From contig DATLGC010000163.1 of the NCBI GenBank assembly GCA_035540655.1, forward strand, positions 1 to 55,316: a stretch of DNA of 55,316 nucleotides. The letters run 5' to 3'. Origin of the DNA: Sphingomicrobium sp. Lineage in GTDB: Bacteria > Pseudomonadota > Alphaproteobacteria > Sphingomonadales > Sphingomonadaceae. Position 1 is the first letter of the stretch. Each line of letters starts with the position of its first letter. Positions 4,477 through 18,846 of the stretch are shown here, one piece after another. A model generated the notes under the pieces. The model ran no database searches. It worked only from the letters and a program-made list of their open reading frames with translations, and was not told the origin of the DNA. The position numbers and the translations under genes are program-made.

Positions 4477-5628
4477 TTGGACATAAGAGCTAGCGACGCA
4501 TTCCTTGCCGACACGCTGCGCGCGCCGCCGGCTGCGTGGCCAGCCGGGCGGGACGGGGAGGGGGCCTCCGACCGGCTGTTCGAGCGGGTCTGCTACCACG
4601 GTATTGCCGGACTGCTGATCGATATTGGTGGCGTCGGCCCGTGCTGGCCGCACGAACTTCGTCGCCGCATCCACGGCCATGCGATCGGCCAGGCGATGTG
4701 GGAGGCCCGCCATCAGGCCGAGCTGGCGCGACTGCTTGGCGCACTTGCCGAGCGCGACCTCGAAGCGATCCTGCTCAAGGGCACTGCAATTGCCTATGAC
4801 CTCTACGGGACTCCTTCTGCCCGGCTTCGCGGGGACAGCGATTTACTGGTTCGCGAGGACCAGCTGGGAGAAGTCCGGCAGGTTCTGCGTGCGCTTGGCT
4901 GCGTCCGTCATCTCAGCGGAAGGCCGCTGCCCGACCGGCTCGAGCTTCAGGAAAGCTGGGCGATCGAGGCGCCGGGTTCCCGGCAGCTGATCGATCTCCA
5001 CTGGTCCGCGCTCAATTCGCTGGCGCTTCGCAATGTGTTGCGTTTCGATCAGATCCGGTCCGCCCTGATGCCCTTGCCCCGGCTGTCAAAGGACGCGGTC
5101 GCCGCCGATCGCCCGATCTTGCTCCTGCACACCTGCCTTCACCGGGCGATGCACTGCGTTTCACCCTATTTCGTCGATGGAGTGACTTATTATGGGGGCG
5201 ACCGGCTGATCTGGCTGTATGACATCCGGCTGCTGGCGGCCGCGTTGAGCGAAGAACAGTGGGAAGCGTTTCTGGTCCTTGCCCATCACACGGGCACGTC
5301 GGCGCCCTGCCGTGAAGGCCTTTCAATGGCTAAACTGCGACTTGGCAGCAGAGTGCCCGACGCGGTCATGGCCAGACTTGCCAGTGGCGAGAGAAGCAGC
5401 GCTAGCAGCTATTTGCGGGGAGGACAGTTGCGGCGATCATCGATGGATGTCCTCGCCGTGCCCGGCTTACGGGACAAGCTTCGATTGATCGGCGGCCGGC
5501 TGTTTCCCGGAGGCGCGTTCCTGAGGGCGAAATATCCGCGCATGGCGCGCATGCCGATCGCCATCCTGCAAGCGCGGCGATTTGCCGACATGCTTCGCGA
5601 CCGGCCGCGGCAAGGCAGTGGCCAATGA
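4477..5628 (+). CDS. Nucleotidyltransferase family protein (NTP_transf_5-like), lasso-cluster associated
   Basis: ILLKG..LY..PSARLRGDSDLLV, IDLHW and RLIWLYDI motifs typical of this family. Confidence 0.85.
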   Translation: MDIRASDAFLADTLRAPPAAWPAGRDGEGASDRLFERVCYHGIAGLLIDIGGVGPCWPHELRRRIHGHAIGQAMWEARHQAELARLLGALAERDLEAILLKGTAIAYDLYGTPSARLRGDSDLLVREDQLGEVRQVLRALGCVRHLSGRPLPDRLELQESWAIEAPGSRQLIDLHWSALNSLALRNVLRFDQIRSALMPLPRLSKDAVAADRPILLLHTCLHRAMHCVSPYFVDGVTYYGGDRLIWLYDIRLLAAALSEEQWEAFLVLAHHTGTSAPCREGLSMAKLRLGSRVPDAVMARLASGERSSASSYLRGGQLRRSSMDVLAVPGLRDKLRLIGGRLFPGGAFLRAKYPRMARMPIAILQARRFADMLRDRPRQGSGQ

Positions 5629-5644
5629 GCCGCCGAGGGCTCGA

Positions 5645-7531
5645 TTGAGCGGCATCTGCGGCATCCTCCGCCTGGACGGCGGTCCGGTTACTGCGCCCGA
5701 AATCCGGGCGATGATCGGGCCGCTGAAGCGCCGTGGCCCTGACGGCGCGAATGTTTGGCTCGGCGACGGCGTTGCCCTTGGCCACGCGCTGTTAGCGACG
5801 ACCCGCGAGGCGGCGGCGGAGCAGCTTCCGCTGGCCCACGAAAATAGCCAGTGCGTGATCACCGCCGATGCCCGTATCGACAACCGAGACGAGCTTGCCG
5901 CGGAGCTTGGGCTAAATCTTAGCGAGCGAATGATCGGCGACGGCGAGCTGATCCTCCTGGCTTACCTCAAATGGGGCGAGAATTGTGTCAAGCATTTCCT
6001 GGGCGATTTTGCCTTCGCCATCTGGGACGGTCGCACACGGCGGCTGTTCTGCGCCCGCGATCAGGTCGGCATGCGCCAGCTCATCTACTGCCACCTTCCA
6101 GGCAATCTCTTCTTGTTAGCCACAGAGCCGAGGGCGGTTATCGCACACGCTTCCGCGCCGCGCGAGATCAATGAAGGGCGGATTATCGATTACCTAGAAA
6201 ACTTGGGCGGCTTCGATCTTGTAGAGACCTTTTACAAAGGTGTGTTTCGGTTGCCTCCGGCTCACCTTCTGGTCGTCGACCAGCAACGCCTGTCCGTCCG
6301 CCAGTACTGGTTCCTCCAACCAGAAAACGAATTGAAGCTGGGGTCTGACGAAGCCTATTCCGAAGCTTTCCTCGACGTCTTTCAACAGGCTGTCCGCAGT
6401 AGGCTTCGGAGTTCTGGGCCGGTGGGCGCGATGCTGTCCGGCGGAATTGATTCGGGGAGCGTTGCTGCGGTGGCGGCGAGGCAGCTTGCTGCGACTCACA
6501 AGGGTCCGTTGCAAACCTTTTCAGGGGTAGGACCGGACCCGTCCTCCTGCATCGAAACGCGAACGATCCGCGCCGCGCTGACAATTTCGGGGATCGAGCC
6601 GGAGCTCGTCAGCCTCGCGAGCCTCGATGGATATATTGAGGAGCTGGCTCAGCTCACCCGCTGCATTGACGAACCGACCGACGGCCAAATGACCCTTCTT
6701 CGGGTCGTGTACCTCGCGGCCAACCGATCAGGCATCAAGGTGGTGCTTGACGGCGTCGGTGGGGACACCGTCCTTTCGGCAGGCAATCACGTGGCACGGC
6801 TGCTTCGCCGAGGATGGGTGACTGAAGCCATACGGGAGGCCCGCGGGGAACAATCGTTTTGGGGACATCAACATCCAGCCCACAGGGCGTTCGCCCTAGG
6901 GGCATGGCGTGCATTCGTTCCGAAGGGAATTCGCCACGTTAGACAAAATGCAATCGCGGCAATCCGGGACCGAATCGATCACGGAGCCCACATTAGTGCT
7001 GGGTTATTCAGCAATGCGAGGGAGCGTAAGCGCCGCTGGCGCCAACACTTAACGCCCTTCGATTCCACCGCTCGAGATGAGCGGGCACTGCTTATCCGCC
7101 ATCCGTACCTGACAATCGGGCGAGAAGCGTACGACCGCGTCGCATCGGCTCTTGCAATCGAACCGAGGGATCCGTTTGTCGATCTCCGCCTTGTTCGCTT
7201 TTCACTGGCGCTCCCTCCGGAGCAGCTGCAATCGCGCGGCTGGCCAAAGCTGATCCTTCGCAAGGCAACGGCTGGCCTTCTTCCCGAAGAAGTGCGCTGG
7301 CGCCCGGGCAAAGAGCATCTAGGCTGGTCGTTCACCCGTGCTCTGTTCGCGTCTCGCTGCTGGTCAGAAAAACTTGACGGGCACCCCAGGGAAACTATTT
7401 CGCGTTTCGTTGCTTTAGATCAGATCGAGTCCGTCCAACGGAAGTGCGGGGACTCGAAAGCTTTTGTCGATTGGGTCAATGCCGTGTACCTGAGCTTATG
7501 GTTCGATTCCGTGAACGGAGGGAGGATTTAG
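5645..7531 (+). CDS. Lasso peptide cyclase (asparagine synthetase-like, C protein)
   Basis: Likely start MSGICG (Ser where Ntn glutaminases have the catalytic Cys); RGPDG, GDFAFAIWD, ARDQVG, LSGGIDS ATP motif, DGVGGD, RDPFVD, KLILR..LLPEEVRWRPGK; flanked by precursor, RRE and B2 genes. Confidence 0.9.
   Translation: MSGICGILRLDGGPVTAPEIRAMIGPLKRRGPDGANVWLGDGVALGHALLATTREAAAEQLPLAHENSQCVITADARIDNRDELAAELGLNLSERMIGDGELILLAYLKWGENCVKHFLGDFAFAIWDGRTRRLFCARDQVGMRQLIYCHLPGNLFLLATEPRAVIAHASAPREINEGRIIDYLENLGGFDLVETFYKGVFRLPPAHLLVVDQQRLSVRQYWFLQPENELKLGSDEAYSEAFLDVFQQAVRSRLRSSGPVGAMLSGGIDSGSVAAVAARQLAATHKGPLQTFSGVGPDPSSCIETRTIRAALTISGIEPELVSLASLDGYIEELAQLTRCIDEPTDGQMTLLRVVYLAANRSGIKVVLDGVGGDTVLSAGNHVARLLRRGWVTEAIREARGEQSFWGHQHPAHRAFALGAWRAFVPKGIRHVRQNAIAAIRDRIDHGAHISAGLFSNARERKRRWRQHLTPFDSTARDERALLIRHPYLTIGREAYDRVASALAIEPRDPFVDLRLVRFSLALPPEQLQSRGWPKLILRKATAGLLPEEVRWRPGKEHLGWSFTRALFASRCWSEKLDGHPRETISRFVALDQIESVQRKCGDSKAFVDWVNAVYLSLWFDSVNGGRI
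7521..7525 (+). promoter_or_regulatory. Shine-Dalgarno (GGAGG) of the lasso precursor, inside the last cyclase codons
   Basis: GGAGG lies 7 nt before ATG 7533. Confidence 0.8.
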
Positions 7532-7532
7532 A

Positions 7533-7670
7533 ATGACTGGTAAGCGCGAGCGTAAAGTGTATTCTTCACCGACGCTGGTGAGATATGGTGATTTGGCCGG
7601 GATCACGGCAGGTGGCGTTGGCTCGGTGGTCGAAACAGGCGGTGGTAACACTAACAAGAAACCCGGTTAA
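7533..7670 (+). CDS. Lasso peptide precursor, 45 aa: MTGKRERKVYSSPTLVRYGDLAGITA|GGVGSVVETGGGNTNKKPG
   Basis: Hand-translated. Leader motif YxxPxLxxxGxxxxxT, Thr at -2, core starting with Gly1 and Glu at position 8, strong SD, directly after the cyclase. Confidence 0.92.
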   Translation: MTGKRERKVYSSPTLVRYGDLAGITAGGVGSVVETGGGNTNKKPG

Positions 7671-7688
7671 GCCGGCCGGTTCAGTAGG

Positions 7689-8603
7689 TTGCAGAGCACC
7701 GAGAGGCGCCGCGATTGCGGAGCCTTTAATCGAGCTTCGGCGCTCGCGGAGAGTCATAACTGGTCACTTTTGGTCGCGGCAAACCCATGCGTCGCCGGGG
7801 AGTTTATGCCCGTCGACATGGCGAGTCAGCCGGGTTTTCTACTCGGACGTGATTTAAACAAGTGCTCCCGGTTCCTCGTTTCGTTTCCCAACCTTGCGGA
7901 TTTCGAAGTTGATTGTCGCGAAAGAACCGTAAGCATATTCGAACATCATTCAGGTGCTAGCGAGCAAACGATCCAGCACCTCTTGCTGGATCAACTCCTG
8001 CCCCGGTTATTGGCATGTGCTGGCGATCTTGTGGTCCACGCTGCGGGCTTCGCCACAGTAACAGGTTCGGTGCTTCTGACCGGGCTGTCAGGGAAGGGGA
8101 AATCCACTCTGGCCGCCAGCTTTCACGCCGCCGGACATTTGTTGTTAGGAGACGATGCCATGATCGTCCACGCGGCACTCGGGGCGGTTTCTTGCCGCTC
8201 CGTCTATCGAAGCCTGCGTCTCCACCGGGACTCGATCGAAGCGGTGCTGCCAGGAAAGCGAGAACTCGCGCCCGTTGCGGAGCACACCGATAAGCAAAAT
8301 GTCATAGACCTTGGTCCGTCGCCTGAGGTTGCCAACGAGCAGCCTGTTAGGGCAGTTTACTGCCTTGGGGAGCACAGTGATACGATCCGGGTCAACAGAA
8401 TGTCTCCGGGCGAAGCATGCATGGCGCTTGTCGAACATAGCTTCTGGTTAGACCCGGCAGATCTCGAGCAAACGAAATCTCGTCTTATAACTGCCAGCGA
8501 AGTTGCGAAAGGCGTTCCCGTCTTTAATGTTGCGTACCCACGCGATTATGGCTCGCTGCCGCGGCTGCGACAAATCATCCTAGGCGGTCATGATATTCAT
8601 TAA
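7689..8603 (+). CDS. HPr kinase-like P-loop kinase (lasso kinase type)
   Basis: VHAAG..LLTGLSGKGKSTLA..LLGDD (His, Walker A, DD signature); start uncertain. Confidence 0.85.
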   Translation: MQSTERRRDCGAFNRASALAESHNWSLLVAANPCVAGEFMPVDMASQPGFLLGRDLNKCSRFLVSFPNLADFEVDCRERTVSIFEHHSGASEQTIQHLLLDQLLPRLLACAGDLVVHAAGFATVTGSVLLTGLSGKGKSTLAASFHAAGHLLLGDDAMIVHAALGAVSCRSVYRSLRLHRDSIEAVLPGKRELAPVAEHTDKQNVIDLGPSPEVANEQPVRAVYCLGEHSDTIRVNRMSPGEACMALVEHSFWLDPADLEQTKSRLITASEVAKGVPVFNVAYPRDYGSLPRLRQIILGGHDIH

Positions 8604-8634
8604 AATCAGCTTCGCGGGCTTCTGAGGCGCACTT

Positions 8635-9789
8635 GTGCCTAAAGGATATAATATCTTTATGTACGGTCGGATGGTGACCTCCGAGCCGCGCATGTCGGCC
8701 TACGCGGAGGCGCTGAGACAGGCGATAAGCCCGGGCTGCACGGTCTTCGACATCGGCGCCGGGCCTGGGGTCTTCTCGCTGCTTGCCTGCCGATATGGAG
8801 CCGGCCGGGTGGTGGCGATCGAGCCGGATGATTCCGTTGAGCTCCTGCGCCCCCTGGCAGAAGCCAACGGCTGCCTCGACCGGATCGAAATCTTCAAGGG
8901 CCTGTCGACCGACTTTGCCCCGGTGGGCCGAGCGGACGTAATCGTCTCGGATCTGCGCGGCGCTTTGCCGCTGTTCGAGCACCATATTCCAGCAATCAAG
9001 GACGCGAGGGAGCGTTTGCTGGCGTCGGGCGGCACGCTCATCCCGGCGCGCGATACGATCCGCATCGCACTCGCCCAGAATGCGAAAAACTATTCCGATC
9101 TTTGTGTGGAGCCCTGGCTCCAAAATCGGTTTGGACTCGACCTCTCTGCAGGCCACCAGTTCACGGCGAACCTGCTCGCGCAGGTCGAGCCGGAGCACAC
9201 CAAGCTATTGTCGGAATCCGCCGATCTCGCGGTGCTCGACTATTATTCGGTCACGGACCCCGATTTTTCGGGAGACGTGGAGCTCGAAGTCGAGGTGGAA
9301 GGCGCCCTTCACGGGCTGCTGATGTGGTTCGATTCCGAGCTTGCGCCCGGTATCGGCTTTTCCAACGCGCTGGACCAGCCGCCACAAATATACGGGCGAG
9401 TCTTCATTCCTCTCGAACAGGCGCTCGACGTCGCGCCTGGCGACCGAATCCAGGTGAACCTAGTCGCGAAGCTCGTCGGCGGCAGCTACGTTTGGGCCTG
9501 GAACAGCAGGCTGGTCCGGCCCGGCGACTCCGAGCCCGAGGCAAGCTTTCGGCAGTCGACCTTCCTTGGAAAGGTGATTGACCCCGATGCACTGCGGGTG
9601 CGTGCATCGACCTTCGTTCCGCCGCGGTCGGATGATCACGAGGTCGACCGTTTCTGCCTTTCGCTGATTGATGGGCGGCACAGTCTCGGCGAACTCGCCG
9701 ACAAGCTTCGGGAAAATTTTCCCGCTCGATTCACCCACGCCTCGCAGGCCCTCGACCATGTCACGCGATTGACGGGTCGTTATCGATAG
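8635..9789 (+). CDS. SAM-dependent methyltransferase with PRMT-like fold and C-terminal winged-helix-like tail
   Basis: RMSAYAEAL, VFDIGAGPG, VVAIE, ADVIVSDLRGALPLFE (double-E loop equivalent), ARERLLASGGTLIP, LHGLLMWFD (PRMT beta-barrel); tail LSLIDGRHSLGELADKL. Start may be ATG 8659. Confidence 0.8.
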   Translation: MPKGYNIFMYGRMVTSEPRMSAYAEALRQAISPGCTVFDIGAGPGVFSLLACRYGAGRVVAIEPDDSVELLRPLAEANGCLDRIEIFKGLSTDFAPVGRADVIVSDLRGALPLFEHHIPAIKDARERLLASGGTLIPARDTIRIALAQNAKNYSDLCVEPWLQNRFGLDLSAGHQFTANLLAQVEPEHTKLLSESADLAVLDYYSVTDPDFSGDVELEVEVEGALHGLLMWFDSELAPGIGFSNALDQPPQIYGRVFIPLEQALDVAPGDRIQVNLVAKLVGGSYVWAWNSRLVRPGDSEPEASFRQSTFLGKVIDPDALRVRASTFVPPRSDDHEVDRFCLSLIDGRHSLGELADKLRENFPARFTHASQALDHVTRLTGRYR

Positions 9790-9829
9790 CTAAACAACTC
9801 GTTTTTAACCGCGCTAGGGCGGTGGAGGC

Positions 9830-10111
9830 GTGATGACGGACATTCTGCGGCAGAAGCTCGAGCCGACCGGGGACGCGGTGGAAAGCCGAGTGGGGGACGA
9901 AACCGTTCTCCTTCACCTCAAGCGTGGAACTTACTACGGCCTTGACCCCCTGGGAACCAGAATCTGGTCGTTCCTCAAGGAGGGCAAGGAGCCGCAGGAG
10001 ATCTGCCAGCTTGTGGCTGCGGAATTCGAGGTCGAGCACGAAACGGTGGCGGACGATGTTCGGCGCTTCCTGTCCGATCTGAAGGCGAACGATATCGTTG
10101 TCGAACTGTAA
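9830..10111 (+). CDS. PqqD-family RiPP recognition element (lasso B1/E protein)
   Basis: VGDETVLL..GTYYGLDPLGTRIW..EFEV..DVRRFLSDL; about 90 aa; GGAGG SD. Confidence 0.92.
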   Translation: MMTDILRQKLEPTGDAVESRVGDETVLLHLKRGTYYGLDPLGTRIWSFLKEGKEPQEICQLVAAEFEVEHETVADDVRRFLSDLKANDIVVEL

Positions 10112-10125
10112 GTCGGAGCCAGCCG

Positions 10126-10581
10126 ATGGGCATGTTCGCCAAGGCCGCGAAACTGGGCATTGGCGAGTGGCGTGACGTCGGTCGTGCGGTCATCGAACTG
10201 GCGATCGCACGAGCCTGGATGGCGTTCGCGGACCCGGAAAAATTGCTTGCCACAGCCGCACCGTCGGGGGGAGCGGCGGACGATTGCGCGAGCGACCATG
10301 ACGTGGCGCTCGTCCGCCGCGTTTCGGTGGCCATCGGCCGCGCCGGCGCTCGGGTGCCGTGGCGTTCGGATTGCCTCGTCCAGGCGCTCGCTGCCCAACG
10401 ATGGCTGAGACTAGGGGGGGTCCAAAGCGACCTGTTTATCGGTGTTCGCCCCGCCAATGGTGAAGGGGTCGACGCGCACGCCTGGCTGGTCAGCAGCGGA
10501 TCGGTGGTAACCGGGGGTGACGTCAGCGGCTTTACGCCTTTGGTGACTCCCGATGTGCTGGCGGCGCTCGCCTCGCGCTGA
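10126..10581 (+). CDS. Lasso peptide leader peptidase B2 (transglutaminase-like)
   Basis: DCLVQALA..LFIGV..AHAWL Cys/His motifs. Confidence 0.92.
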   Translation: MGMFAKAAKLGIGEWRDVGRAVIELAIARAWMAFADPEKLLATAAPSGGAADDCASDHDVALVRRVSVAIGRAGARVPWRSDCLVQALAAQRWLRLGGVQSDLFIGVRPANGEGVDAHAWLVSSGSVVTGGDVSGFTPLVTPDVLAALASR

Positions 10582-10632
10582 CACTGGTCCAAGTCGCTCG
10601 CAAAAGCAGGGCCCAGCGCTTACATCGTCGGC

Positions 10633-13789: not shown

Positions 13790-14941
13790 ATGGCAATCCC
13801 CGAAGAGCGGCCACGGCCCGACCGGCGAACCATCGTCGTCTCCGCGAACTCGTCGTGGAACATCGTCAATTTCCGGATGGGCCTGCTCGAGGGCCTCGCC
13901 CGCAGCGGCTTTCGGCCGATCGTCATCGCGCCGGCCGACAGCTACAGCGAAGCCATCACCGAGCGGGGGTATGAGTTCCGCGCTCTGCCGATGAGCCGGT
14001 CGGGAATGAACCCGGCCGCCGATGCCCTTCTGCTGCTTAGATATTATCGACTGATCCGCGATTGCGGCGCAGCTGCCTATCTCGGTTTCACGATCAAGCC
14101 CAACATCTATGGTTCGATCGCCGCCCGGCTGGCTGGAGCCGAGCGGATCAACAACGTCAGCGGTCTTGGCACGGCCTTCCTGCAACGGGCATGGCTAGAA
14201 CGCCTGGTAAGCGGACTGTACCGACTCGCATTCCGCGGCTCGCACACTGTTTTTTTTCAGAATTCGGACGACTGCAATCTGTTTGTCGAAAAAGGAATCG
14301 TCACAGCTCGGCAGGCAAAACTGGTGCCTGGGTCGGGCGTCGACCTCGATCGCTTCAGGCCAGCTTCGGACGAGCCCGGCGGCCTACCGACCTTCCTGTT
14401 CATTGGCCGGCTGCTCCGCGACAAGGGTGTTAGGGAATATGCCGAGGCGGCTCGGCTTTTGCGCTCGAGGCTGCCGGAGGCGCGCTTCCAGATTCTCGGC
14501 GATCTGGACCCCGGCAACCGGACCGGGATCGATCGCATCGAGTTGCAGTCGTGGATCGATGAGTCCGGTATCGAATATCTGGGGCATTCGGAAGACGTCA
14601 GGCCGTATGTCGCCATGGCGACCGCGGTCGTCCTGCCTTCCTATCGGGAGGGCATGCCAAGAGTGCTGCTGGAAGCCGCGGCAATGGCCAAGCCCTTGGT
14701 GGCGGCGGATGTTCCGGGCAGCCGCGAGATAGTCGTCGACGGTGAGACCGGCCTTCTATGCACCGTGCGCGATGCTGCATCACTGGCCTTGGCGATGGAG
14801 CGGATCGCCGCGATGCCTACGCCGGTTCGGCGCGCGATGGGCGAGGCCGCCCGGACAAAAGTTCAAGCCGAATTCAGCGAAGCGCTGGTAGTCGACAGGT
14901 ATCTCGCAACGCTGCTCGAGGTTGCCGGTTCGGACCGATGA
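13790..14941 (+). CDS. Glycosyltransferase family 4
   Basis: TIKPNIYG, FQNSDD, GSGVD, RLLRDKG, PSYREGMPRVLLEA. Confidence 0.92.
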   Translation: MAIPEERPRPDRRTIVVSANSSWNIVNFRMGLLEGLARSGFRPIVIAPADSYSEAITERGYEFRALPMSRSGMNPAADALLLLRYYRLIRDCGAAAYLGFTIKPNIYGSIAARLAGAERINNVSGLGTAFLQRAWLERLVSGLYRLAFRGSHTVFFQNSDDCNLFVEKGIVTARQAKLVPGSGVDLDRFRPASDEPGGLPTFLFIGRLLRDKGVREYAEAARLLRSRLPEARFQILGDLDPGNRTGIDRIELQSWIDESGIEYLGHSEDVRPYVAMATAVVLPSYREGMPRVLLEAAAMAKPLVAADVPGSREIVVDGETGLLCTVRDAASLALAMERIAAMPTPVRRAMGEAARTKVQAEFSEALVVDRYLATLLEVAGSDR

Positions 14942-15032
14942 GCATTGCGCCCGGCCGATCGTCGGGAACCGGGGGCGGCGCTGACTGTTGCCGCCGGACA
15001 GTTTTCGGAAGGGGTTGGATAGCCGGTTCGTG

Positions 15033-15815
15033 ATGTTTGGCCTTTTTCGTAAGAACTTGTCTCAACCCAAGGCACCCAGGGGCCACCGGGCCTACGCGAT
15101 TGGCGACATCCACGGCCGGCTCGACCTTCTCGACCAGCTGCTGGAGCGGGTCGAGCGCGATAATGCCGAACGAGGCCGGGCTGAGACCCATCTCGTCTTC
15201 CTTGGCGATCTCATCGATCGCGGGCCGAGCTCCTGCCAGGTGGTCGAGCGCCTGCGGACGTATCAGCCGAGAAAAATGAGCACGGTCTTCCTGATCGGCA
15301 ATCACGAAGAAGTTTTGCTCCGGCTGCTTGGCGGCGAGAAAGGTTTGTTGTCGAGCTGGCTGCTGTTCGGCGGCGCCGAATGCTTGCGCAGCTATGGCAT
15401 CGATCCGGACAAGGTGGACCCGGCGGACGAAACCACAGCGCTCAGGCAAGTCGCCAGGGCAATCCCGTCAAAACATGCCGATTTCCTGAAGAGCTTTGCC
15501 GACACCTTTCGTTTCGGTGATTATCTGTTCGTCCATGCCGGAATCCGCCCGGGGGTCGAGCTCGATGCCCAGGATTCGACCGATCTGCGGTGGATTCGCC
15601 ATCCCTTCCTGGAAGACGAGAGCGATCATGGCGTGACCGTCGTGCACGGCCATACGATTTCGCCGGGGATTGACGAGCGACAAAACCGGATCGGCATCGA
15701 TACGGGCGCCTATCGAACAGGGATTCTGACGGCGCTCGGCATCGAAGGCGCCGATCGCTGGGTTTTCAGTACGGCCTCGGAACCATCTTGCGCAGACCGC
15801 GTATCGATTGATTAG
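15033..15815 (+). CDS. Metallophosphoesterase (PrpA-like Ser/Thr phosphatase family)
   Basis: GDIHG, GDLIDRG, GNHE, HAG, HGHT, IDTGA motifs. Confidence 0.92.
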   Translation: MFGLFRKNLSQPKAPRGHRAYAIGDIHGRLDLLDQLLERVERDNAERGRAETHLVFLGDLIDRGPSSCQVVERLRTYQPRKMSTVFLIGNHEEVLLRLLGGEKGLLSSWLLFGGAECLRSYGIDPDKVDPADETTALRQVARAIPSKHADFLKSFADTFRFGDYLFVHAGIRPGVELDAQDSTDLRWIRHPFLEDESDHGVTVVHGHTISPGIDERQNRIGIDTGAYRTGILTALGIEGADRWVFSTASEPSCADRVSID

Positions 15816-15893
15816 GTTCAAAATGGAGGCTAGTGGGTGCCCATCCGGCGTGATTTGGGGGAAGGTTCGCGCATCGAGTGGCGAGGTGTATCC

Positions 15894-16610
15894 GTGACTG
15901 GCGTTAATTCTGTTCGGCCCGCATCGCTCCTTCCTGTTTTGCTGATCGTATTCCTTGGTTTGATATTGTCCGCATGCGCCGACCGTCGCGGCGGCCCGAT
16001 TCCCTATGATCCGAGCGGTTTTGGCACGCCCGACCCGATCGGCCTCACGACGTTGGACGCAAACTACAAGATCGCACCCATGGACACGCTGACCATCCGC
16101 GTGTTCCGAATGCCCGAGCTGTCCGGCGACTATGAAGTCGACCTGACCGGCCATGTGTCGCTGCCGCTGATCGGCAATGTCAGGGCGGCCGATTTCACGA
16201 CCGCCGAGTTGGATGCGGCCCTGACCAGCAAATTCGGCGAGCGTTACCTCGAGAATCCGGACATCAGCGTTGGAATCAAATCGTCGACCTTGCGGACGGT
16301 GACCGTCGATGGCGCCGTCACCAGGTCCGGCTCATTCCCAGTTGCCGGCTCCATGAGTCTCATGCAAGCGGTGGCATTGGCCGGCGGCACTCGCGAAGAT
16401 GCAAATGCGAGGCGGGTCGCGATTTTCCGCCAGATCGGGGGCCAGCGCCAAGCCGCGGCTTTCGACCTTACGAGCATTCGGCGCGGAGAGATGCAGGATC
16501 CGCCCGTTTTCGCGGGCGATATCGTCGTCGTCGACGGGTCGTCGATCAAGGCAACGCAGAAGCAGATTCTGAATAGTCTCCCGATCCTATCAATTTTCAG
16601 ACCCTTCTGA
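15894..16610 (+). CDS. Polysaccharide export outer-membrane lipoprotein (Wza-like)
   Basis: Lipobox LSAC; YKIAPMDTL..SLPLIG (PES domain); SLBB repeat; start uncertain. Confidence 0.88.
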   Translation: MTGVNSVRPASLLPVLLIVFLGLILSACADRRGGPIPYDPSGFGTPDPIGLTTLDANYKIAPMDTLTIRVFRMPELSGDYEVDLTGHVSLPLIGNVRAADFTTAELDAALTSKFGERYLENPDISVGIKSSTLRTVTVDGAVTRSGSFPVAGSMSLMQAVALAGGTREDANARRVAIFRQIGGQRQAAAFDLTSIRRGEMQDPPVFAGDIVVVDGSSIKATQKQILNSLPILSIFRPF

Positions 16611-16632
16611 GTTGCCTGACGCAGGGAGCGGC

Positions 16633-18846
16633 ATGAACAACAATCTACCAGTCGCCAAGGACGAAGGCACGTGGGTCGTCGACCGCTACGGGCCCGGCAA
16701 CCGGCTCCACCCCGATGAGCCGGGACGGACGGCGCCGAGTGTGCTCGATCTCGCTGCGCTGGTGCGGATCATTACTCACTGGCGCTGGCTCATTTTGAGT
16801 GCGGTCATCCTTGGCATTGCCGCCGCGGTCATCATCACTTTGCTGACGACGCCAATGTACCGCGCTAAAGTGACACTTGAGGTGAACCCGCCGAGCGTTG
16901 AAATTCTTGACGAGAATACGCGCGACCGGGGGATTGCGCAGAGTAATTGGGATTTCGTGGCGACCCAGGTCGGGCTTCTGGCGAGCCGTAGCGTCGCGGA
17001 GCGTGCTGCTCAGGATTTGAATCTCGCCAACAATCCTGAATTCGTCGGCACTGGAGGCGATCCTTCGACCCGCCTGAACATTGCTGCAAGTCGTGTAGCT
17101 GGCGGTCTTCGGGTTCGGGCGCCCGACCAGGGGCAGCTCATCGAGTTCACCTATGAGTCGGAATCTCCGCAACTGGCAGCCCAGGTGGCCAACGCGATCG
17201 CCGAGGCGTTCATCAATTCCAATCTTCAGCGTCGATACGAGGCGTCCGCCTATGCGCGAACTTTTCTCGAGCGTCAGATTGCGAAGACCCGAGGGGACCT
17301 TGAAAGATCGGAACGCCAGCTGGTCAGCTATGCCCAGGCGCAAGGCATCATCAACACCGCGTCCGGGGACTCGGGGGCACCGGGCAGCGACGCCAACTCC
17401 CTCCAGGGACAGTCGCTTGTCGCTCTCAATGATGCGCTAGCGACGGCGACCGCCCGTCGAGTTGCGGCCGAGGGGGCATATCGGGCCGCCAGCGCCGCGG
17501 GGGCAACCACCGAAGTGACCGAAGGCTCCCAGCACCTTCGCCAGGCGCGCGCCGCTCTCGAGGCCGAGTATCAAGAAAAGCGGACGATGATGAAGCCCGA
17601 GCATCCCGAGATGCTGAGCCTGCGCTCGCGCATCGACGAGCTCGGGCGGCAGATTTCGCGGGAGACTTCGCAGGTGACGTCGGCCAGGGTCAATTCGCTG
17701 GCTGCCGAATATCGCGCAGCCGTGGCTGCCGAGCGGGCTTTGCAAGGGCGCGTTGCGGCGCTCAAGGGCTCGGTCCTCGATCTGCGCGGAAGGAGCATTC
17801 AATATACGATCCTGCAGCGCGACGTGGACACCAACAGGGCGCTCTATGATGCCCTTCTCCAACGGTACAAGGAGGTTGGCGTGGCCGGCGGCATAGGCGC
17901 CGCGCCTATTTCGATCGTCGACCGGGCCGAGCCGCCGGGGGGGCCGTTCAAGCCTAACCTGCCGCTTAATCTCGCCTTCGGACTGGGCCTGGGATTGATC
18001 GGCGGTGTCGGAGCGGCCGTGGGCCTCGAGTTCGTCAACGATACGATCAAATCTCGGGACGACGTACGAAACAAGCTTGGGTTGGCCTGTCTCGGTGCTG
18101 TCCCAAAGACCGTCGGCAAGACCAGCTTCGTCGACGACCTTCGCGATCCCGGCTCGATGGTTTCCGAAGCTTATTCGGCGGTCGTGGCGGCACTTCGCTT
18201 CAGCACCGACAGTGGCGTGCCCAAGGCCCTGCTGGTGACCAGCGCACGACCCTCTGAGGGCAAGTCGTCGAGCGCCCTGGCGCTCGCCCAGAATTTCTCG
18301 CGCCGCGGCAAGAAGGTTCTCTTGATCGATGGTGACCTGCGCAAGCCGACGTTCAAGACCGCGTCGGAAAAGACGGGCCTGACGCAATTGCTGACCAATG
18401 AGGATTCGGTCGGCAATCACATCGTACAGACACAGTATGAAAATCTCTGGCTCCTCCCCTGCGGGCCACTTCCGCCAAATCCGGCTGACCTATTGTCGAC
18501 CAACCGGTTCCAGCATGTGCTCCGGGAGGCTTCATCCCATTTTGACCTGGTGATCATCGATGCCCCACCCACCTTGGGGCTGGCCGACGCACCGCTGCTT
18601 TCAGCGGTTACCGGCAATGTGATGTTCGTGATCGAGGCCGGGAAAACGAGAACCTCGGCAGCGCGCGAGGCGATCGAGCGGATCGAGTCGTCGGGCGCCC
18701 ATATCATCGGCGCGACCCTGACCAAGGCGACCGAATCCGGTGGCTATGGCTACAAGAACTACGGCTATGGCTATGGCTATGGTTACGGCAAGGTCGGAAC
18801 AAAGCAGAACGAGATCCAGATGATTCCGCAAGGGTCGGATAGCTGA
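16633..18846 (+). CDS. Polysaccharide co-polymerase / tyrosine autokinase (Wzc-like)
   Basis: Two TMs around a coiled periplasmic region; SEGKS Walker A, LLIDGDLRKP, IIDAPP; C-terminal Tyr cluster. Confidence 0.92.
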   Translation: MNNNLPVAKDEGTWVVDRYGPGNRLHPDEPGRTAPSVLDLAALVRIITHWRWLILSAVILGIAAAVIITLLTTPMYRAKVTLEVNPPSVEILDENTRDRGIAQSNWDFVATQVGLLASRSVAERAAQDLNLANNPEFVGTGGDPSTRLNIAASRVAGGLRVRAPDQGQLIEFTYESESPQLAAQVANAIAEAFINSNLQRRYEASAYARTFLERQIAKTRGDLERSERQLVSYAQAQGIINTASGDSGAPGSDANSLQGQSLVALNDALATATARRVAAEGAYRAASAAGATTEVTEGSQHLRQARAALEAEYQEKRTMMKPEHPEMLSLRSRIDELGRQISRETSQVTSARVNSLAAEYRAAVAAERALQGRVAALKGSVLDLRGRSIQYTILQRDVDTNRALYDALLQRYKEVGVAGGIGAAPISIVDRAEPPGGPFKPNLPLNLAFGLGLGLIGGVGAAVGLEFVNDTIKSRDDVRNKLGLACLGAVPKTVGKTSFVDDLRDPGSMVSEAYSAVVAALRFSTDSGVPKALLVTSARPSEGKSSSALALAQNFSRRGKKVLLIDGDLRKPTFKTASEKTGLTQLLTNEDSVGNHIVQTQYENLWLLPCGPLPPNPADLLSTNRFQHVLREASSHFDLVIIDAPPTLGLADAPLLSAVTGNVMFVIEAGKTRTSAAREAIERIESSGAHIIGATLTKATESGGYGYKNYGYGYGYGYGKVGTKQNEIQMIPQGSDS
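18742..18789 (+). repeat. Imperfect GGCTAT tandem repeat encoding the Wzc Tyr cluster (GYGYKNYGYGYGYGYG)
   Basis: Directly visible hexamer repeat. Confidence 0.85.

Follow-up and report, generated by a model that had tools for sequence, protein, structure and literature searches.

A PRMT-fold methyltransferase in a Sphingomicrobium lasso peptide cluster: a candidate for N-methylation of tail lysine

Methylation and phosphorylation of lasso peptides

Lasso peptide clusters with an HprK-like kinase have been described for paeninodin and pseudomycoidin (PadeK/PsmK, PsmN) and for the Bradymonas bsf system, whose kinase BsfK phosphorylates the ring residue Ser3 (PMC10368454). In the accessible portions of their descriptions these clusters combine the A, B1, B2 and C genes with the kinase and a nucleotidyltransferase, and no methyltransferase is listed for them. 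Methylation is known from other members of the class. StspM and LasF methylate the C-terminal carboxylate, and the PIMT-like TceM and LihM lead to aspartimide; all are SAM-dependent tailoring enzymes, like the one discussed here, and the available text sets them apart as O-methyltransferases of other families. In longipeptin A it is a tail side chain near the C-terminus that is methylated (Met13, as an S-methyl sulfonium), and the associated LopH, whose role is unproven, is described in the excerpted text as resembling the SAM-binding domain of MTHFR and not a PRMT, as actinobacterial and as accompanied by P450s (PMC10664482). Outside the lasso peptides, AerE and PoyE N-methylate the side chain of Asn in RiPPs; AerE is reported, in the accessible part of its description, to be closest to GenN and PrmC (PMC9060474).

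As far as their accessible text goes, reports on lasso and RiPP methyltransferases (PMC9266682, PMC11285071, PMC13352647, PMC10664482) cover C-terminal esters, aspartimide and Met sulfonium and contain no PRMT-fold lasso enzyme; the corresponding part of a paper on LPPs has no mention of methylation (PMC13381572), and that of a paper on saskemycin mentions SznE, a small-molecule Arg methyltransferase (PMC12637814). The THW motif has been tied to Arg coordination in PRMTs, according to the section of that work at hand (PMC8399567). Neither a PRMT-fold lasso enzyme nor a characterised member of the present family was found in the literature searched, a search that could miss a listing in a genome-mining supplement. 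The original prediction for this locus, made from the DNA letters, had described the known lasso methyltransferases as carboxyl methyltransferases or aspartimide formers with no PRMT fold among them; the latter point agrees with the searched literature, but the list omitted the Met S-methylation of longipeptin A.

The lasso cluster and its precursor

The window, by which we mean the whole 55,316-nucleotide stretch of Sphingomicrobium DNA that was analysed, contains on its forward strand a run of genes in the order nucleotidyltransferase, cyclase, precursor, HprK-like kinase, methyltransferase, B1 and B2, with a racemase gene and uvrC on either side. The nucleotidyltransferase-like protein (NTP_transf_5, 4477..5628) matches PF14907 at E 1e-30. 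The AsnB-like cyclase (5645..7531, Pfam Asn_synthase) has a probable TTG start at 5645 inside the open frame 5582-7531, and its best NCBIfam match is still NF033535, even though the score of 504 bits falls short of the cut-off of 525. The kinase (7689..8603, these being ORF limits with an uncertain true start) matches TIGR04352 at E 3e-14, below cut-off, and its His, GKS and DD motifs can be read in the sequence. B1 is a stand-alone RRE of the PqqD family (9833..10111, PF05402 E 5e-19) and B2 a leader peptidase (10126..10581, NF033537 at 70 bits against a cut-off of 33).

The precursor (7533..7670, 45 aa) scores 19.3 bits with NF033521, whose cut-off is 19, and is the sole above-cut-off match in the genome. 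It has a YxxPxL leader with Thr at position -2, and this Thr, together with aligned homologues, places the probable cleavage site in front of a predicted core of 19 aa, GGVGSVVETGGGNTNKKPG (7611..7667), with a Gly1-Glu8 ring. The genes thus present the leader YxxPxL, Thr(-2), Gly1, Glu8, B1, B2 and AsnB-like cyclase of a lasso cluster. The core contains neither Arg nor Met; as the original prediction had stated, arginine is confined to the leader, where it occupies positions 5, 7 and 17 and forms an Arg-x-Arg. Ser5 is a possible kinase site, and the core ends in Lys-Lys-Pro-Gly, of which Lys16-Lys17 (7656..7661) are the predicted methyl acceptor site on the strength of the co-variation described below. 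In contrast to the paeninodin-type and bsf systems, the core has neither a C-terminal Ser nor Ser3, and no ABC exporter gene was found within the cluster.

Across the cluster (4477-10581) the GC content dips to 0.57 at 7-8 kb, compared with 0.61-0.67 in the flanks, and polysaccharide export genes (13790-18846) begin 3 kb downstream. Promoter and terminator scans gave results at chance level. Three soil DNA runs compared with 7400-10600 list no differing letters; one of them may be the source and the other two cover the region partly. No RNA dataset containing the region was listed.

Predicted fold of the methyltransferase

The methyltransferase gene (8635..9789, +) is an open frame with a GTG start encoding 384 aa; its start position is shared by the homologues, and Tyr5 is conserved in at least 90% of them. 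The protein comprises a Rossmann domain, an arm, a beta-barrel and a C-terminal helical extension. A search of PDB sequences returned 59 distinct sequences at E <=0.001, all arginine methyltransferases by name, with yeast Hmt1/PRMT1 as the best match (E 2e-20, query residues 19-277), and Pfam PF22528 is matched above cut-off. The AlphaFold2 model (82-row alignment, pLDDT 93.6) finds PRMTs as all of the matches listed by Foldseek (E 4e-26, residues 1-310); compared with 48,161 representative chains, it has PRMTs in the top 15 rows (Z 24-33), among them PRMT2 at Z 32.6 with an rmsd of 2.4 over 307 residues, and the best non-PRMT rows lie at Z <=12.5. A PRMT layout over both the Rossmann and the beta-barrel parts, as originally proposed, is confirmed by the model. 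With the eukaryotic PRMTs (PRMT1/Hmt1, PRMT2, PRMT3 and PRMT8; Z 31-33 across residues 1-310) the enzyme shares about 20% identity, the PRMT-conserved Met13 and Arg19 and the SAM motif: motif I, DIGAGPG, and the acidic post-I residue E63 align to Hmt1, the latter position being E or D in 90 of 90 loci. The model also contains an arm-like helical insert, whose Trp161 is invariant (90/90). Unlike the eukaryotic enzymes, it has Asp followed by x-Arg-Gly in place of the first Glu, QIY in place of THW, a second Glu that is unconserved across its family, an extra C-terminal helical domain and a bacterial setting in RiPP operons.

Databases label the homologues PrmA, a label that stems from the Rossmann part alone. 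Pfam PrmA covers residues 25-106 only, the full-length model TIGR00406 scores 20.5 bits against a cut-off of 183, and the PrmA-like structure 3grz reaches Z 12.2 over 122 residues. A PrmA identity was rejected, with the full-length model and fold match absent, the beta-barrel present and PrmA-like proteins at Z ~12, so that the lack of a barrel, raised in the original prediction as grounds for abandoning the PRMT reading, was not what the model showed. No model in NCBIfam matches the enzyme at a score above its cut-off.

The C-terminal extension (approximately residues 332-384, 9628..9786) forms three helices outside the PRMT-aligned part, without the three-stranded sheet of RRE/PqqD. It is weakly like the helical half of these proteins (Foldseek E 0.54; hhalign to the B1 profile at a probability of 28%); its top structure match, PqqD 3g2b, gives Z 7.0 with an rmsd of 2.3 over 49 aligned residues, and lasso B1 proteins give Z 5.5 and 5.2, all within the noise range, as the tool states it for the first. 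Three Anaerolineae loci (L052:5431-7942, L058:7968-10610 and L080:6703-9564) encode a shorter enzyme that lacks the C-terminal helices; stand-alone PqqD-like and radical-SAM-like genes follow it, and no lasso genes were observed. A complex prediction of the enzyme with SAM and the precursor scored 0.01 and was counted neither for nor against any reading.

A family linked to lasso clusters

The family is common. Of the 7,999 candidates scored in the homologue search 841 proteins were returned, and no fewer than 150 of the 50%-identity clusters reach E 2e-106 or better. A scan of genomes confirmed 245 relatives, of which 80 were kept. Loci of this kind come from Proteobacteria, Acidobacteria, Cyanobacteria and Chloroflexota, the nearest named homologue (74%) being that of another Sphingomicrobium locus, L001. 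Linkage to RiPP genes, proposed originally as a check, is borne out: among the 80 loci, many on short contigs, a kinase lies near the enzyme in 75, usually adjoining its gene, a cyclase in 67, B1 in 70, B2 in 59 and a nucleotidyltransferase in 54. The five loci without a kinase place the enzyme beside an RRE and a radical-SAM-like gene (three) or an ABC-like gene and a nucleotidyltransferase (two), where the radical-SAM-like and ABC-like labels are a reading of motifs. Sister clades with CDH[VI]G and DQIG motifs sit in the same kind of operon. The enzyme likely belongs to an uncharacterised lasso tailoring family and, judging from its model, would act like a PRMT-fold peptide methyltransferase.

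An incomplete arginine clamp

In PRMTs two glutamates and a histidine hold the guanidinium group. The double-Glu-loop equivalent of the enzyme, SDLRGALPLFE (residues 105-115, 8947..8979), aligns to SEWMGYFLLYE of Hmt1 and contains D106, R108 and E115; the THW-loop equivalent, QIY (residues 251-253, 9385..9393), aligns to Hmt1 THW. Both motifs, including the exchange of the first Glu for Asp, had been read in this way at the outset, and the Hmt1 alignment agrees. D106 is kept in 89 of 90 enzyme-bearing loci and in 150/150 wider representatives, and R19 and G109 are similarly constant (89/90 and 88/90). The second Glu, E115, is present here and in 119/119 close homologues, all of which also have D106; it occurs in 27/90 loci and in 30 of the best 150 representatives. 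The THW His is replaced by Ile or Val in 70/90 loci. Since E115 and this His are lost family-wide, the family keeps one acid and not the full Arg clamp, and by its motifs the enzyme departs from the PRMTs at both the double-Glu and the THW loop. R108 is kept in 69/90 loci, and 17 loci, matching the sister clades, have Arg at position 253, so that a pocket Arg (108 or 253) is found in every clade.

One enzyme-bearing locus, L042 (match 8001-9137), has the motif altered to SDIRRP and is the only one with a tail lacking both Lys and Met; its enzyme may have shifted in specificity or be decaying. Further bacterial PRMT-like proteins, in which the first Glu is kept in an SEI motif, occur near kinase or lasso genes at L156:1375-2490, L173:6395-7510 and L200:658-1890.

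Core residues that travel with the enzyme

The window and 233 further loci were examined, loci L081-L110 being excluded as too short. Precursors were obtained from 157 loci: 92 with the enzyme, 33 without it but with adequate flanks, and 32 with too little sequence to judge, which were left out of the contrast. Manual checking eliminated three spurious precursor calls, and the counts further omit two duplicates and a core in which no ring acid could be assigned; the division into ring and tail, at the first Asp or Glu near position 8-9, is a prediction. Tail Met occurs in 58/92 enzyme-bearing and 0/32 well-flanked enzyme-less clusters, and tail Lys or Met in 91/92 and 11/32, respectively; Lys plus Met ranks first among the 190 residue pairs. 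The absence of Met from enzyme-less tails flatters the contrast, because tail Met is also present in 6 of the 32 loci left out for their short flanks, and among these L210, L240 and L261, at least, show cluster genes and no visible enzyme.

After removal of duplicates, Lys or Met follows the ring in 103/104 precursors from 90 enzyme-bearing loci, which provides the residue shared among enzyme-bearing clusters that the original prediction had suggested looking for. By tail, these loci divide into 33 with Lys only, 31 with Met only, 25 with both and one, L042, with neither. Among distinct tails, 98/99 have Lys or Met; the single tail lacking both compares with a mean of 9.8 over 10,000 shuffles, and no shuffle gave as few as one. 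The two residues complement each other, Lys being present in 35/36 Met-less and 26/63 Met-bearing tails, and no such complementarity is seen for Arg (16/36 vs 26/63). In 81/98 tails the final Lys or Met is 2-4 residues away from the end. Lys alone is a weak marker of the enzyme, because it also occurs in 16/36 distinct enzyme-less tails. No pocket residue separating Lys-only from Met-only loci was found within the SDxRG clade; the two states switch five times on the enzyme tree, and no pocket residue cleanly tracks them.

The contrast recurs among close relatives. In the sister clade CDH[VI]G tail Met is present in 14/14 loci and Arg in only two; the enzyme-less relatives of this clade (L113 and L175-L183) have no tail Met, and a genome-wide search detected no enzyme in nine of these ten genomes. 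In the tenth, G920, the tail of the enzyme-less cluster contains no Met, and a separate enzyme gene lies at another site next to a precursor with tail Met. A FastTree tree of the cyclases of 115 loci provides seven independent pairs: on average, tail Met accompanies the enzyme in 6.1 of them, and it runs against the enzyme in none (median p 0.03); for Lys or Met in the last six residues the same seven pairs give 4.5 and none (median p 0.06). Related loci are not independent, and only these seven pairs bear on the Lys/Met rule as independent comparisons; moreover, two clades with longer tails, one rich in cyanobacteria and the other of sphingomonads, account for the bulk of the enzyme-less set. 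The choice of the rule was made in part with the data in view, an earlier version still allowing Arg; in loci gathered after the idea was first noted, Lys or Met is present in 8/8 enzyme-bearing clusters and Met in 0/18 enzyme-less ones. Of the nine nearest relatives of the window listed, eight have tail Lys and the ninth Met.

Proposed reaction and its alternatives

Lysine and methionine can mimic one another in methyltransferase pockets. The reading that we favour, with confidence evenly balanced between acceptance and doubt, is SAM-dependent N-methylation of Lys16 or Lys17, with sister clades of the same family S-methylating Met. B1 would hold the leader, the kinase would phosphorylate ring Ser5 much as BsfK phosphorylates Ser3, and release and closure of the Gly1-Glu8 lasso would fall to B2 and the cyclase. 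The methyl group of SAM would pass to the epsilon-amine of a tail Lys rather than to arginine. Asp106, held by Arg19, would orient the single heteroatom that ends an unbranched side chain, and without the THW His no complete guanidinium site would remain. Arg108 would either engage the C-terminal carboxylate close by or depress the pKa of the Lys; an anchoring of the carboxylate by the pocket Arg is suggested because the last Lys or Met lies so close to the end. Relatives that have only one tail Lys carry it in a K-x-P register (K-F-P in L002, K-H-P in L111), which would favour Lys16; distance from the end would favour Lys17. Where sister clusters have Met tails, this pocket would produce an S-methyl sulfonium. 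The modified residue, in the tail or as a plug, would be bulkier and cationic. More tentatively, a PRMT-fold branch widespread in bacteria may have been rebuilt as a lasso family with interchangeable Lys and Met acceptors, giving N-methyl-lysine or S-methyl-methionine sulfonium by clade; a neutral Met tail would thereby become cationic, a state for which enzyme-less clusters often use Arg. Should this hold, bacteria use the PRMT fold for non-arginine chemistry, which bears on the setting and origin of PRMT specificity; methyl-Lys and a second route to Met sulfonium would be added to lasso peptide chemistry, and a peptide methyltransferase that needs only a short tag could serve as a biocatalyst.

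Several observations go against a Lys acceptor. Arg108 could favour an anionic one, and to judge from the alignments the pocket Arg may leave carboxylate or phosphate as candidates. Methylation of the C-terminal carboxylate or a nearby backbone amide, with tail Lys or Met as a recognition residue only, would account for the pocket Arg of every clade and for the position of the last Lys or Met, and it has a precedent in the C-terminal methyl esters of StspM, as far as the accessible text describes them (PMC9266682). We nevertheless consider it unlikely: pure recognition should accept Leu, Gln or Arg, none of which complements Met as Lys does, Asp106 is nearly invariant beside the acceptor position, and three precursors from related clusters that are fused to a Peptidase_S74 domain, one of them with the enzyme at L116 and one at L167, would not have a free C-terminus at first. 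Transfer to a phosphate or phospho-sugar that the adjoining kinase places on a ring Ser or Thr is improbable. The frequency of the kinase beside the enzyme, the presence of Ser or Thr in 100/100 cores, the pocket Arg and the BsfK reaction, as given in the available text (PMC10368454), would fit such a target; however, the kinase also occurs in enzyme-less clusters, the G920 enzyme and its precursor stand apart from any kinase, and a ring phosphate leaves the association of tail Met and Lys with the enzyme unexplained.

Retention of Arg methylation, alone or beside Lys, with an Arg of the leader, of another protein or of the relatives' tails as target, is unlikely. The fold itself, the joint presence of D106 and E115 in the window's own clade, tail Arg in 34/70 SDxRG loci and the Arg-x-Arg of the window's leader speak for it, and the retained E115 and these tail Args count against the Lys reading. 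Yet 57/99 distinct tails have no Arg, as have all cores of 47/90 enzyme-bearing loci; the whole precursor is Arg-free in 9/82 cases, including the closest homologues L001 and L184, which also led to the rejection of leader Arg as the target; Arg tails are common without the enzyme (15/36); and the second Glu and the THW His are lost across the family. The altered specificity suggested originally gains support from these Arg-free cores and precursors. A family specific for Met, in which the window's copy would be idle or act elsewhere for want of an acceptor, is very unlikely: Met gives the sharpest contrast with enzyme presence and the window's core is Met-free, but the 33 Lys-only loci come from several phyla and have intact genes and conserved motifs.

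Among the acceptors first proposed (Lys16/17, Asn, the C-terminus or a phospho-adduct), Lys is favoured by co-variation and Asn is disfavoured, being absent from 22/100 cores; Met had not been foreseen. Asn methylation through kinship with AerE and PoyE was rejected on the same count and with AerE not among the listed matches. A penultimate Arg or Lys as a family rule was likewise set aside, since Arg tails occur just as often in the enzyme's absence and 20/99 tails lack both residues. A logic like that of fosfazinomycin (PMC13622209, in its accessible part) offers a parallel, but there are no hydrazine or phosphonate genes among the proteins scanned.

Unusual precursors and neighbouring proteins

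At L240 (4272-5333, +) a Cys-rich protein lies directly 3' of a Met-tailed precursor, in the slot often taken by the methyltransferase. It looks FliB-like but has no Pfam or NCBIfam match and stays without assignment; it is possibly an unrelated replacement enzyme. At L012 (2272-4896) and L022 (4863-7007) the precursor shares its reading frame with the upstream cyclase, with no stop in between, and the two may be fused or a stop may have been lost. Lasso precursors are fused in frame to a Peptidase_S74 domain at L116 (8404-8787, +), L167 (7385-8161, -), L175 (6512-6910, -) and L261 (1686-2207, +); the domain (PF13884) is matched at E 4e-8 in L116 and 2e-11 in L261 and is assigned by similarity in L167 and L175, and it may free the C-terminus of the core by self-cleavage.
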